The notes beneath the pieces were generated by a model. That model was not told the DNA's origin, did no database searches, and saw only the letters and a list, made by a program, of their open reading frames with translations. DNA of 64,000 nucleotides from a virus. The stretch lies in IMG/VR virus record IMGVR_UViG_3300025764_000004, positions 10,010 to 74,009 of that record. One strand, 5' to 3'. The position numbers and the translations under genes were made by a program. Shown here piece after piece: positions 5,315 to 64,000 of the stretch. Numbering within the stretch: the first letter of the stretch is position 1; each line of letters begins with the position of its first letter.

Positions 5315-6049
5315 ATGAAAGCAAAATTGAAAGACTTGCAAGTCGCTGCACAAGAATTGAATGCAATCGGGATCGACCCGGAAATTGATGCTGCATCTAC
5401 GGATGTAGAAGTATTGTTTGCTGGAATCAAAGATTCTTTGAGTGTTATTGAAGACACAGACGAGTTCACAACAAAGACTCAATCTGTTATTGACGAGGTT
5501 ACAGAAATTGTTGAAGCCGACAAAGTTCCTGAAGAAAAACCAAAACGTCAGGTGAAACCTGTTGCTGCTCCGGTTGTTGCTAAAAAAGAAGTGGTAGAAG
5601 AGGATGCAGAAACAACTCTTTATGACAAAGTAAAAGCTACCGCAAAGGTTGCTGATTTGAAAGCTATTGTTGAAGAAGAAGATGACTTCAAAAAGATCCG
5701 GAAAGCAATCGACACGTTCAAAAATCCATTTATCCTGAAACGTGCAATGTTGGACATTCTGGAAGAATCTGATCCGAAACTTGCTACAGGTGCTGCTGAA
5801 AAGAAAGCTGCAAAAACAGCAAAGAAAGAAGTAGATCCAAACGCTCCAAAGAAAAAGAATCCTTTTGTAAAGGTTGCCGGACAATTGTCTAATCTGGAAG
5901 TTGCTGAGAAGCTGTTATCAGAAAAAGCTGATCCGAAAACCATCTATGCTACATTTACCAAAGTGTATGAAGGCAAAGCTGGAGCAGACGAAAAGTACAT
6001 TAAAGGCCGAGCAGACATTTACATGAAAATTGCTGCAAAAGGTAAGTAA
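5315..6049 (+). CDS. Lys/Ala/Glu-rich protein, possible DNA-binding; C-terminal domain paralogous to 62798-63280
   Basis: own promoter-like motif and terminator; KKAAKTAKK linker; F..VY..K...D..YI..R..IY...A C-terminus. Confidence 0.7.
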   Translation: MKAKLKDLQVAAQELNAIGIDPEIDAASTDVEVLFAGIKDSLSVIEDTDEFTTKTQSVIDEVTEIVEADKVPEEKPKRQVKPVAAPVVAKKEVVEEDAETTLYDKVKATAKVADLKAIVEEEDDFKKIRKAIDTFKNPFILKRAMLDILEESDPKLATGAAEKKAAKTAKKEVDPNAPKKKNPFVKVAGQLSNLEVAEKLLSEKADPKTIYATFTKVYEGKAGADEKYIKGRADIYMKIAAKGK

Positions 6050-58420: not shown

Positions 58421-59962
58421 TTAAGTGATACGAGTTGCTAATCTACGTGCTGTCAAATGATTGAATGCCCCTGACGAAGCATCCACCTGATCTTTATATG
58501 TTCCCAATGGAAAAAATCTATGTTCTTCAATATATGAAGTATTCCAAGGTGCTGACAATAAAGAAACTGCTCCATTATTCACCTGAACTGAGTAAGGATC
58601 TGCTCTATATGCCTTATCTCCTGTTGGTCGATCAGCATAACAAGCAAACCCGGCTAAATGCCGTATTGTTGATTCGGCACTTTCTTTGCCTCCAGAGCCA
58701 GGCTCCTGCTCTATGTAGATGTTTACATGCCTGCCGTCTAATCGGGCAACTTCGAGGATAATTCGCTCCCGTTCATCGGTGCTCCACTGCCCCCGCTTTA
58801 CATCATGCACAAAAAACCGTTCTCTTGTTAATTGTGACATTTTTACACCAACTGTGAAAGCACCTCCGCCAGCCGTTCCAGCCTTATCCCAATAACGGTA
58901 GGTTCTTAAAATCTCATTTGCTGGAGGTTCTACGGTTGCTATCCCAAAATGATCGACATGAAACATACCTCCGCCAACTGGGATAGGATTCTGTCCTATC
59001 TGTCCAGCATACCCGTATTGACCTAGATCAGCTTCTAGATCTTTCAACACTTTCCAATTCAGTCGTTTCGGATCTAATAAATTGTTGACATAATATTCTG
59101 CTAATTCTGGGGGCTGGACCTGATCTTTGAAATTGAGTATTTCACCAGGTAAAGAAATGTTCTTGACATTCTTTTTCTTCTTCGCAAGAACATGACCGGT
59201 AGGATCATCTTGGTGAAGTCTTTGCATGATGCCAATGATGACTGAAATTCCTTTGTCAGTTTTACGTGTTGGTAAGGTTCGGTCAATCCAAGCATTAGCC
59301 GTTTCCCGTTCTTTATCTGAAACTGATTGAGTTGGATTCAACGGATCGTCCCATATTAGAATATCACCGTGAAATCCCATCAATGTACCTCCAACTGAAG
59401 TTGAATATCTATTACCTCCTTGAAGAATTGTATTACGTCCTGGACGCCCTGGTACAGGTTCTTCTTTAACTATTTTGAAGTTTGATTTGGTATCTTTGTC
59501 ATCTCTGATTGCAATTTCTGGATATAATGTTTTAAATTGATCCGAGCGAATCAAATCCCTGCAATATTCTGCTGATTCTAAACTCAATGCAGCTGAATAT
59601 GAAGCAGTGATAAATCTCATCCAGTACCATCGTGTCCAACACCAAGCTGGAAACATTATAGAAAAGACAATGGTTTTTGATGTACCTGGAGGAACATTTG
59701 CAATCAGATCATACAATTTTTCCTCTCTATCACCTACCCGTTCTGCAATCACTTCCAATTCTTTGCAGAATAATTCTAAATGCCAGTTTCCGACAAAGGT
59801 CTGATTACAAATAACAGGCCAGAACCATTGAACAAAATGATACAGTGAACGATTATTCAATTCACGAACGACCAGAAGAGGATTCTTCATCGCAACTTGA
59901 ACTCTTTCTATCTTGGAAAGTTGTTCAGTGCTCACTTCTTCTGTCATTGTATCAAATTCCAT
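58421..59962 (-). CDS. terL: terminase large subunit
   Basis: NVPPGTSKT, G..GD...DDP, IMQRLH.DD, YWD.A, EQEPG.GGK, DQVDA. Confidence 0.93.
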   Translation of the reverse strand: MEFDTMTEEVSTEQLSKIERVQVAMKNPLLVVRELNNRSLYHFVQWFWPVICNQTFVGNWHLELFCKELEVIAERVGDREEKLYDLIANVPPGTSKTIVFSIMFPAWCWTRWYWMRFITASYSAALSLESAEYCRDLIRSDQFKTLYPEIAIRDDKDTKSNFKIVKEEPVPGRPGRNTILQGGNRYSTSVGGTLMGFHGDILIWDDPLNPTQSVSDKERETANAWIDRTLPTRKTDKGISVIIGIMQRLHQDDPTGHVLAKKKKNVKNISLPGEILNFKDQVQPPELAEYYVNNLLDPKRLNWKVLKDLEADLGQYGYAGQIGQNPIPVGGGMFHVDHFGIATVEPPANEILRTYRYWDKAGTAGGGAFTVGVKMSQLTRERFFVHDVKRGQWSTDERERIILEVARLDGRHVNIYIEQEPGSGGKESAESTIRHLAGFACYADRPTGDKAYRADPYSVQVNNGAVSLLSAPWNTSYIEEHRFFPLGTYKDQVDASSGAFNHLTARRLATRIT

Positions 59963-61544: not shown

Positions 61545-62023
61545 GATCGCATTCAGTTTTGTACAAACTAAACATAAAGCATTCAAACGCAAACGTTAGT
61601 GCTGCAAGCGTTACAGCGTGTTACCAATAATATAAATATGTACATGTATGTTTTGTTGCAAAGTATATAACAAATAGCACATGTACTGTGTATTAAGTAG
61701 TTAGCACGTTTTAACTTTACTTTTATGTTATGCTATTGTGCTAAAGTATTAGTTTACAGCACGTTACGCGTACGCTTGCGTAAATTGCGCGCAAAAATTA
61801 TGCTATAAACGTAAAGCTATATATGTAACTATGTGCATACTATTGTAAGTAAGTTTTAGCATGTAAACTTTTGCGTATATGCAAATATTTAAGCTGCTTT
61901 GTTTGTGTTATGTGTTTATAAACATTTTTTTAATATTTGTTTTAAAATGTGCAACTTTTTTTAGTGCTATACGTTTAATACAGCAATGTGTGCAACGTAG
62001 CACATATTTAACAAACTTACATT

Positions 62024-62185
62024 ATGTTACACAATTACACAACAGCACAATTACAGCACATGTACATTAATAGTATTGCAGCAGCAAAACTTAACAACAG
62101 TAAACGTATTACTAAATTAAGTGTACACACTTTAAAAGTATTAGCAAAGCAATATTTTATACAGTTAGTTAATTACACATTTTAA
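62024..62185 (+). CDS. 53-aa basic protein lacking D/E/G/P/W
   Basis: MLHNYTTAQLQHMYINSIAAAKLNNSKRITKLSVHTLKVLAKQYFIQLVNYTF; preceded by AAACTTACATT. Confidence 0.7.
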   Translation: MLHNYTTAQLQHMYINSIAAAKLNNSKRITKLSVHTLKVLAKQYFIQLVNYTF

Positions 62186-62197
62186 CACTTTACAATT

Positions 62198-62332
62198 ATG
62201 CAAAACTTTACACACACAACAGCGCAGCATAGTAATACAATAGTTACTGTATGCTTTTTTACATTTGTTTTAGTATTTATTGCATGTTGCTACTTAGTAG
62301 TAATTAATGCAACAGTTATTAACGTTTTATAA
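62198..62332 (+). CDS. 44-aa single-TM protein lacking D/E/G/P/W
   Basis: MQNFTHTTAQHSNTIVTVCFFTFVLVFIACCYLVVINATVINVL; 12-nt spacer upstream. Confidence 0.7.
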   Translation: MQNFTHTTAQHSNTIVTVCFFTFVLVFIACCYLVVINATVINVL

Positions 62333-62344
62333 AAACTTACAATT

Positions 62345-62584
62345 ATGCAAACAGTACAATTTTACAACAGCAACACAGCAACAGCAGCACAATTATTAAG
62401 TGCTAAAAATGCAGCAGCAGCAAACAAAGCAATTATAACAGCAGCAAATTTGCGCGTTATTTATTTGCAGCAACACTACTTTAATTTGCTTGCTAATACA
62501 AAAGCAAGCAAAGCACTAAAAAATGCTTATTTTTTAGCTTACAATGCACAAATACATAGTTTACGTTTATGCAATGCTTTTTAA
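62345..62584 (+). CDS. 79-aa Ala-rich protein lacking D/E/G/P/W
   Basis: 12-nt spacer AAACTTACAATT; GCA/ACA codon periodicity. Confidence 0.78.
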   Translation: MQTVQFYNSNTATAAQLLSAKNAAAANKAIITAANLRVIYLQQHYFNLLANTKASKALKNAYFLAYNAQIHSLRLCNAF

Positions 62585-62596
62585 AAATATACTATT

Positions 62597-62758
62597 ATGT
62601 TAATACAAAACTACAATAATTTTACAGCTATGCTATATAAAAATTTTAGCAATGTTAATACACACATTGCAGCTAGTTTAATAATAAAGCGTTATATACA
62701 TTTACGCAAACATGTAAAGCATTACACACAATTACACAATACAAAAAAACAGCACTAA
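62597..62758 (+). CDS. 53-aa His/Lys-rich protein lacking D/E/G/P/W
   Basis: MLIQNYNNFTAMLYKNFSNVNTHIAASLIIKRYIHLRKHVKHYTQLHNTKKQH; 12-nt spacer upstream. Confidence 0.65.
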   Translation: MLIQNYNNFTAMLYKNFSNVNTHIAASLIIKRYIHLRKHVKHYTQLHNTKKQH

Positions 62759-62797
62759 ATTTATTAACATTTTAAAAACTTACAAAAACTTAAAAAA

Positions 62798-63280
62798 ATG
62801 CAAAACACAAACAAACAAGCTGTAAACGTTACAAAAGTAACAACAGCACAAAGCACAGTTAGCAACAGCAAAGCAGCTATTTTAGCACGCAAAGCGTTAA
62901 ATTTAAGCAATGCAACAGCACGCACAGCAACAGCAAAAAATTTGCTTGTAACGCGCAATGTAATTAACACACTTACAACAGCACGCAAAGCAAAAAGCGC
63001 AAAAAAAGCTATGCAAGTACAAAGCACAGCAACAGCACACACAACAAAGTATAATAGCATTTATGCAAATGTAACTAGCTTGCACATGTTAGCAGCTATG
63101 CTTATTGTAAACAAACAAACAGTAACAAGCGTTACAAGTGTACAAGCGTTTATAGCAGCGTATGCACTTAAAAGCGTTACAAACGTTAACTTTATTGCTG
63201 TGCGTATGCAAATTTATTTTACGCACGCTAATACTTTGCAGCTTGTAGCAAAATTACAAGCTAAATTAGTAACAGTTTAA
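62798..63280 (+). CDS. 160-aa basic protein lacking D/E/G/P/W; paralog of C-terminus of 5315-6049
   Basis: long ORF, shared F-x3-Y-x2-K-x6-[YF]I-x2-R-x2-IY-x3-A pattern. Confidence 0.85.
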   Translation: MQNTNKQAVNVTKVTTAQSTVSNSKAAILARKALNLSNATARTATAKNLLVTRNVINTLTTARKAKSAKKAMQVQSTATAHTTKYNSIYANVTSLHMLAAMLIVNKQTVTSVTSVQAFIAAYALKSVTNVNFIAVRMQIYFTHANTLQLVAKLQAKLVTV

Positions 63281-63291
63281 CATTTGTAATT

Positions 63292-63624
63292 ATGCAAAAT
63301 ACAACTATTTACGCAAACAAGTTAGCTGCAAATGTAGCAGCTAACATAGCATTAAGCGCAGCGCAGCAAATTGTACTTAATGCAAAGCGTGCAAAACGTA
63401 TGCAACAGCAAAGCATTGTTATTTTAGCGCAAAGCAGCAAGCAAGCAAAGCAATTAGCAACAGCAAAAAAAACGTACATGTGTGCAATTGTAACTATACA
63501 GCAACAGTACGTTAATGTACACAATATTGCAATATTGCTAACAGCGTACACAACAGCAATGCAAAGCGCAAAAAACGCTTATTTTGCAGCAAAGCAAAGC
63601 ATACTAACAGTTAGTAACAATTAA
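63292..63624 (+). CDS. 110-aa helical protein lacking D/E/G/P/W
   Basis: 11-nt spacer ending AATT-ATG; shares KNAYF with 62345-62584. Confidence 0.8.
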   Translation: MQNTTIYANKLAANVAANIALSAAQQIVLNAKRAKRMQQQSIVILAQSSKQAKQLATAKKTYMCAIVTIQQQYVNVHNIAILLTAYTTAMQSAKNAYFAAKQSILTVSNN

Positions 63625-63653
63625 GCGTTTAAACACGTTTAAAATAGCTTACA

Positions 63654-63682
63654 AAGCACTATTAATTTAGTGCTTATTTTTT
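63654..63682 (+). terminator. intrinsic terminator built without GG/CC
   Basis: AAGCACTA-TTAATT-TAGTGCTT then ATTTTTT. Confidence 0.7.
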
Positions 63683-63807
63683 GTGCAAAAATTTAAAAAA
63701 TAACATAACAAATATTATTTGCAAAAGTAAATTTTAAAGTAATAAAGCAATTTTAAAAACAAAAAAGCAACAGCAAAGCAAAAAGCAATTTTTAAAACTA
63801 TTTACAA

Positions 63808-64000
63808 ATGTTAAACAAAAAACAAAATAGCACAGTTAAGCAACAGCACAAAAATTTAAAGCTAGTTTGTAAATTTACGTTTACAGCTAGTTTTTTACAT
63901 TTAAGCTATGCAATAGCACGCTTTAAAAATGTACGCTTAAACAAGCTTAAACAGCGTACAAATTATGTTAATATAAAATGCAGTATAGTACAGTATAGTA
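63808..64000 (+). CDS. basic protein lacking D/E/G/P/W, truncated by window end
   Basis: MLNKKQNSTVKQQHKNLKLVCKFTFTASFLHLSYAIARFKNVRLNKLKQRTNYVNIKCSIVQYS.. open to the end. Confidence 0.6.
   Translation, partial: MLNKKQNSTVKQQHKNLKLVCKFTFTASFLHLSYAIARFKNVRLNKLKQRTNYVNIKCSIVQYS

Follow-up and report, generated by a model that had tools for sequence, protein, structure and literature searches.

The GR-free zone and three paralogous genes

The window, i.e., the whole stretch of 64,000 nucleotides analyzed here, corresponds to positions 10010-74009 of a virus record 74,009 bp in length. Its right-hand end is occupied by a zone, referred to as GR-free, in which the dinucleotides GA, GG, TC, and CC are absent, compared to 100-150 per kb counted in the rest of the genome (Table 1). 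With these four dinucleotides banned, codons for D, E, G, P, and W are unwritable in the zone, and it is for this reason that ORF A, which lies within it, contains none of these five amino acids. Overall, the genome holds three paralogs that share a C-terminal domain: A in the GR-free zone, C in the early region, and B in a deazaguanine cluster, with C found by listing the ORFs in the 10 kb of the genome outside the window. The predicted pI values are 11.3 for A, which has no acidic residues, 9.8 for C, and 5.5 for B, in which an acidic N-terminal part is followed by a K/A-rich linker and then by the C-terminal domain as in A. The neighbors of B in the window encode a PTPS protein (queD), a Fer4_12 radical-SAM protein (queE-like), GTP cyclohydrolase I (folE), and a radical-SAM enzyme.

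Table 1. Positions of the genes and features discussed (window coordinates unless a genome position is given)
Feature	Position	Strand	Description	Basis
ORF A	62798..63280	+	160 aa, 15-letter alphabet; member of the A-subfamily of an unnamed domain family	ORF list
Lys/Ala-rich linker of A	62981..63013	+	aa 62-72, ARKAKSAKKAM; colinear with KKAAKTAKK of B	Smith-Waterman
C-terminal three-helix domain of A	63065..63235	+	aa 90-146	hhalign, AF2, decoy test
ORF B	5315..6049	+	244 aa, normally coded, pI 5.5; between queE and folE	ORF list
C-terminal domain of B	5873..6040	+	aa 187-242	hhalign with C-family, BLASTP with C
ORF C	genome 1747-2385 (L004), outside the window		212 aa, normally coded; early region, ~1.5 kb past the GR-free zone	
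terL	58421-59962	-		
GR-free zone	61625..64000, continuing into genome 1-202	both	zero GA, GG, TC, CC	dinucleotide counts

The two ends of the record share a repeat of approximately 120 nt (window 63874-64000 versus genome 1-127), with 4 mismatches at the very end. An independent metagenome contig that is 99.9% identical to the record (L012) crosses the end junction without a break, which points to a circular or permuted assembly. The last ORF of the window, which starts at 63808, runs on across this junction to genome position 135. Just past the zone, a 97-aa ORF (L004:493-786, outside the window) contains 13 GA/GG and no TC or CC; hence, the ban there concerns the template strand only. The reverse pattern, with GA and GG absent and TC and CC present, was observed at genome positions 203-500.

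The starts of the GR-free ORFs between 62190 and 63300 share an A/T-rich context, ACAATTATGCAAA, and lack a Shine-Dalgarno sequence, which the ban makes impossible; such starts would be compatible with a host in which Shine-Dalgarno sequences are dispensable, e.g., a member of the Bacteroidota. Since neither TGA nor its complement TCA can occur in the zone, ORF length is weak evidence of coding there, and the long ORFs that are open on the minus strand, i.e., 62764-63060 (98 aa), 62903-63085 (60 aa), and 63309-63551 (80 aa), are probably artifacts of the ban. Two other GR-free ORFs, 63292-63624 and 62345-62584, show a weak KNAYF-containing likeness to each other (40% over 35 aa, E ~0.1) and may be paralogs within the cassette. 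When the zone and the deazaguanine cluster were compared by blastn with 50,697 phage records, no matches were obtained; in JGI metagenomes, the sole related DNA was L012, a near-identical contig of the same phage, and no related loci were found in IMG/VR with A2, P0054, P0021, and P0049 as queries.

Paralog C links ORF A and ORF B in one domain family

When A was searched against a database of the 552 ORFs of the genome, the sole hit was C (E = 1.3e-10), and in an all-ORF search of the genome C was the only significant match for any GR-free ORF, with no paralog of the other GR-free ORFs detected in the genome at E < 0.05. Pairwise BLASTP aligned A with C at E = 6e-13 (41% identity over 69 aa) and C with B at E = 1e-5 (36% over 55 aa). 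Over the same 27 positions at which the preliminary description had aligned A with B, the C terminus of C matches A at 15. By these searches, the nearest normally coded relative of A within the genome is C, not B.

We then compared profiles with hhalign. A C-family profile of 10 sequences matched A with a probability of 94.5% (E = 8e-8) and the B-family, for which homologs P0004 to P0008 were found, with a probability of 96.6% (E = 5.5e-10). The registers of all comparisons agree, placing F118 of A, F150 of C, and F214 of B in one column. Searched against 1.84 billion representative proteins, the C-family profile returned 68 hits at E <= 1e-3 and found A itself with E = 9.5e-5 over residues 25-144, spanning linker and domain; no C-family relatives were found in 185,579 prokaryote genomes. 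At the level of sequence comparison, these matches establish the C-terminal domains of A and B as homologous.

Altogether, the alignments define a phage domain family, newly described here and as yet unnamed, with up to three paralogs per genome. Its members have a variable N terminus, a Lys/Ala-rich linker, and a C-terminal three-helix domain of 55-60 aa with the approximate consensus SMExLG..LL.EKA.E.EI..AF..AYK.KG.TD..FI..RI.IYM.IA.KR. The three proteins of this genome share with the rest of the family this domain, its F/R/I/Y/A columns, and the preceding K/A-rich linker. They differ from it in that A uses only 15 amino acids and has two features particular to its subfamily, a pair of N-terminal helices and a fourth helix at the C terminus, and in that B carries a long acidic N-terminal part. 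The acidic tract of B is length-variable, as seen in its orthologs P0005 and P0007, which are identical save for a 14-residue D/E run in the acidic linker.

The A-subfamily spans several degrees of alphabet reduction

A close homolog of A, P0002, is 83-88% identical to it and likewise devoid of D, E, G, P, and W. In phylogenetic trees built from 79 rows for the domain and 19 rows for full-length proteins (58 to 181 columns), A grouped with P0002, P0054, P0049, P0035/P0081, P0021, P0030, and P0038 in a clade with 100/98 support. The members of this A-subfamily align over their full length and share an N-terminal motif of their own, LSNATxR...LL..R, together with the extra C-terminal helix. The clade adjoins the C family and is separate from the B clade (SH-aLRT 95), which lies in the opposite half of the family tree, with the reservation that the purged rows are deviant in composition, which may distort their placement.

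The content of D, E, G, P, and W among these proteins is graded, amounting to 0% in A, P0002, P0054, and P0021, 1% in P0030, 6% in P0049, 10% in P0038, and 13% in P0035 and P0081. Monophyly of the purged members was rejected by the AU test (p = 6e-7), a value to be read with the caveat that the group was named after the tree had been seen and is deviant in composition, and at least three changes between the purged and normal states are needed on the tree. From their amino-acid make-up, we infer that the other purged homologs also sit in GR-free zones. P0054 is encoded on a contig of 54.8 kb, and the 23.4-kb contig of P0038 carries the gene of a C-family member, P0016, as well.

It might be argued that ORF A is a decaying, nonfunctional relic of a C-like duplicate whose frame is open merely because the zone excludes TGA. 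The impossibility of TGA, together with the open minus-strand frames described above, makes the length of the ORF weak evidence against such a relic, but it would not explain why nine A-subfamily sequences from different contigs can be aligned in full or why R42, A46, R53, Y85, L98, F118, A121, Y122, I133, A134, R136, and Y140 are invariant in all nine. The differences between A and P0002, moreover, are in-frame indels, the AF2 model of A has pLDDT values above 90 across the domain, and the cassette ORFs are tightly packed with a common ATGCAAA start context. We regard decay as very improbable. The preliminary description had argued for selection on real proteins, and this holds up well, as A has clear relatives and retains the core residues of the family. 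The sequence data support that A is a real, selected protein in which a constraint on the DNA caused the replacement of D, E, G, P, and W.

Gene order in related phages and the origin of ORF A

To place the three paralogs in context, we compared their loci with those of related phages. In G001, a 30.8-kb IMG/VR fragment from a related phage, terL and a terS-like gene are followed on the opposite strand by P0081, a few small genes, and a C ortholog. P0081, at the syntenic position, is the ortholog of A and is normally coded. Approximately 18 kb further, the fragment carries queD, queE, a B ortholog, folE, and a radical-SAM gene. With orthologs of A, C, and B all present in this phage, the three-paralog set must be older than the purge. 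In the A gene of G001, TC and CC are depleted about two-fold on the coding strand, and GA and GG are near-normal; such a mild, strand-specific depletion in a phage that carries the same deazaguanine cluster indicates that the cluster can occur without a strict ban and that the link between ban and modification is not a simple one.

The position of B is also conserved, with its orthologs located immediately upstream of folE in both L001 and L003. In L003, a fragment of a more distant phage, the B ortholog abuts folE, and a small second family member is found just before it. The two L003 family members (3-275 and 681-1547) are adjacent to each other.

These data bear on the claim, made in the preliminary description, that the gene flanked by queE and folE has a recoded paralog in A. 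The part of the claim that concerns homologous domains, one purged and one normal, is borne out; the part that makes A a copy of B is not, given that the nearest relatives of A are P0002, P0054, P0049, and P0081, then the C family, with B in the other half of the tree. Phylogeny thus places A within the family but not as the descendant of a copy of B. A direct and fairly recent duplication of B, moved to the early zone and then recoded, would account for the domain and the K/A-rich linker occurring in the same order in A and B. It is nevertheless highly unlikely. A is much nearer to C (E = 6e-13) than to B, for which BLASTP gave zero hits; in the trees, the A-subfamily neighbors the C family, with B on the other major branch; full-length A orthologs have an N-terminal motif and a fourth helix of their own, both missing from B; and A, C, and B are already distinct genes in the related phage G001. 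On sequence and gene order, the true normally written counterparts of A are its orthologs in other phages, such as P0081.

Direct comparison of A with B and control for composition

The similarity between A and B was first noted from two peptides, FTKVYEGKAGADEKYIKGRADIYMKIA (5954-6034) and FIAAYALKSVTNVNFIAVRMQIYFTHA (63149-63229), both of which were quoted exactly. Their gapless alignment has 8 identities over 27 positions and a BLOSUM62 sum of 26, and it is in the correct register. K/A-rich linkers lie upstream of the domain in both proteins and are colinear, and the purging of D, E, and G from A was rightly observed, the ORF lacking P and W as well. Of the eight identities, six occupy columns that are invariant in the B-family, i.e., F214, Y218, R232, I235, Y236, and A240.

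Taken by itself, the A-B likeness is not significant. Composition-adjusted BLASTP of A against B produced no alignments at E <= 100, and the Smith-Waterman score of 40 corresponds to a shuffle p of 0.07-0.14. An hhalign comparison of six B-family sequences with A and one close homolog gave P = 0.018 and a probability of 2.5%, recovering the same register and lengthening it to 54 columns. The HMM-HMM comparison proposed in the preliminary description as a check is not significant for B-family versus A directly (2.5%) but strong when made through the C-family (94.5% for A and 96.6% for the B-family).

As a control for amino acid bias, 5000 composition-preserving shuffles of A were scored as decoys by family profiles. 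With a profile of the whole family without the A-subfamily, A scored 33.9 bits and the best decoy 10.1 bits; with a profile without the A and C clades, which comprised 56 rows from B's side of the tree, the scores were 30.7 and 10.3 bits, respectively. When the profile was limited to the 5 rows of the B clade, A scored 12.9 bits and the best decoy 13.5 bits, with 1 of 5000 decoys reaching the score of A. A is thus recognized as a member of the family by profiles built without its own subfamily (33.9 bits in the decoy comparison; E = 9.5e-5 with the C-family profile), and the similarity, whose loss upon correction for compositional bias the preliminary description had named as a refutation, persists (33.9 versus at most 10.1 bits).

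That the resemblance is an accident of chance or composition, in which two helical K/A-rich proteins, one of them written in 15 letters, reach 8/27 without common descent, could draw on the empty BLASTP search, the shuffle p of 0.07-0.14, the hhalign probability of 2.5%, and the many ORF pairs from which the peptides could have been chosen, yet this explanation is extremely unlikely and, by sequence comparison, effectively refuted, since an identical register is obtained via C (E = 6e-13 and 1e-5) and via profiles, the decoys reach at most 10.3 bits against 30.7-33.9 for A, only 1 of 5000 matches A even with the B-clade profile, the identities lie on invariant family columns, and the region scored is the domain and not the K/A linker.

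Recoding of ORF A and its predicted structure

We examined how the family core is represented in the purged protein. The near-invariant columns of the family, F, R, I, Y, and A, correspond to F150, R168, I171, Y172, and A176 in C and to F214, R232, I235, Y236, and A240 in B, and all are kept in A as F118, R136, I139, Y140, and A144. Each of these amino acids can be encoded without GA, GG, TC, or CC. In a codon alignment of A and C, identical codons were found at the core F, A, Y, V-T, F-I, R, and I, and every codon of C that contains or abuts one of the four dinucleotides is altered in A. Where the residue of C is permitted, the two proteins are identical at 21 of 44 positions. Within the subfamily, D is usually replaced by N, E by A or Q, G by N or A, and P by T, A, or S.

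The AF2 model of A contains helices at residues 95-104, 111-123, 130-146, and 149-159, with pLDDT values of 89-96 over residues 90-160; the fourth, subfamily-specific helix extends to aa 159 (nt 63274). In the model of C, helices span residues 129-138, 143-155, and 162-183, with pLDDT of approximately 90. Three helices of A and C fall in the same alignment columns, both structures being predictions and the alignment underlying the A model consisting of family sequences. This agreement is consistent with, but does not prove, a common three-helix fold of A and C.

A is the local member of a separate orthologous subfamily. In a related phage, the member of this subfamily has the same location, its gene being the first one to run rightward beyond terL/terS, and is written with all 20 amino acids. 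Here and, judging by amino-acid make-up, in several further lineages, a ban acting at the DNA level has eliminated all codons for D, E, G, P, and W. The fold-defining residues F, Y, R, I, Y, and A, which are encodable without the banned dinucleotides, were retained. The ban, we infer, would keep the early template free of the GpR sites that a DpdA-type enzyme would modify. Altogether, we hold with considerable confidence that the best explanation of the whole is a real early gene of an approximately 74-kb phage with a 7-deazaguanine cluster, belonging to an unnamed family.

Possible function and significance

A function in nucleic acid binding, or in host takeover or transcription, is put forward tentatively for the family; the clues to it are the K/A-rich linker, the pI values of the three proteins, the location of A among immediate-early and of C among early genes, and the fact that B keeps its place within the deazaguanine operon. 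Under this proposal, A would be a strongly basic immediate-early version of such a factor. The DNA-binding or modification-reader role raised in the preliminary description is likewise putative and would draw on the same indirect clues.

Database searches gave the following results. Pfam and PHROGs profiles run on A, B, C, and neighboring ORFs returned nothing above noise, and a PDB sequence search with the C-family profile yielded chance-level matches only (I-MsoI and synaptotagmin). No Foldseek match at E <= 1e-3 was obtained for the full C model against the PDB or for the A model against BFVD. In a wide VIA-align search, the highest Z was 5.3, reached among an assortment of unrelated helical structures and within noise for helical bundles, and the ESM Atlas search returned only clusters of viral hypothetical proteins, with scores of at most 0.83. 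The Pfam family DUF6465 (PF20069) was considered and rejected. Four distant family members (e.g., P0028 and P0032) show weak matches to it along almost the entire protein (18-19 bits, E ~2e-3), the best score being 18.8 bits versus a gathering cut-off of 26 bits, and A, B, and C of this genome gave no match to it at E <= 10.

The findings matter in several respects. Because at least one product of the GR-free cassette has clear relatives, functional genes are subject to the ban, and, as far as structure prediction indicates, a dinucleotide ban has rewritten a protein with its fold kept. The orthologs at 0, 1, 6, 10, and 13% D/E/G/P/W amount to a natural experiment on alphabet shrinkage, and the consistent presence of one paralog within the 7-deazaguanine cluster makes the family a candidate link between DNA modification and early expression. 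A more far-reaching reading, which we offer as speculative and on balance doubtful, joins these points. The A-subfamily would represent one protein in a natural series of alphabets that shrink from 20 to 15 letters. Phage lineages would have acquired or lost the purged state on three or more occasions, driven by a GpR ban that keeps the first-transcribed DNA without deazaguanine modification. The paralogs (A immediate-early, C early, and B in the modification operon) may be variants of a single DNA- or RNAP-directed factor, each serving its own stage, and could deal differently with modified and unmodified DNA.

Comparison with known systems

Bacterial nucleoid proteins such as Hc1 and AlgP have Lys/Ala-rich, histone-H1-like tails. 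The proteins described here are like them in having AKKA-type repeats before a small helical domain and, for A and C, a high pI; no sequence or fold match was found, and DNA binding by A, B, or C is putative.

Phage DpdA enzymes target GA and GGC in coliphage CAjan and GA only in the Pseudomonas phage iggy (PMC7544227, PMC10484667). A text search of these two papers, PMC7544227 and PMC10484667, found no description of a motif-free genome zone or of recoded proteins. The dinucleotides banned here, GA and GG (TC and CC on the opposite strand), overlap the published target contexts, and this phage has queD, queE, folE, and radical-SAM genes, a modification of its own DNA being putative. Since DpdA modifies the G in GA or in GA and GGC, it is plausible that the zone is kept without modifiable sites.

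Laboratory proteins with reduced alphabets reportedly include an SH3 domain made from roughly five kinds of residue and enzymes reduced to 9-13 kinds. ORF A resembles these in that a folded domain, as predicted, is formed under a restricted amino-acid set. It differs from them in that its restriction is natural and imposed by a ban on dinucleotides, eliminates D, E, G, P, and W all at once, and recurs in several phage lineages.
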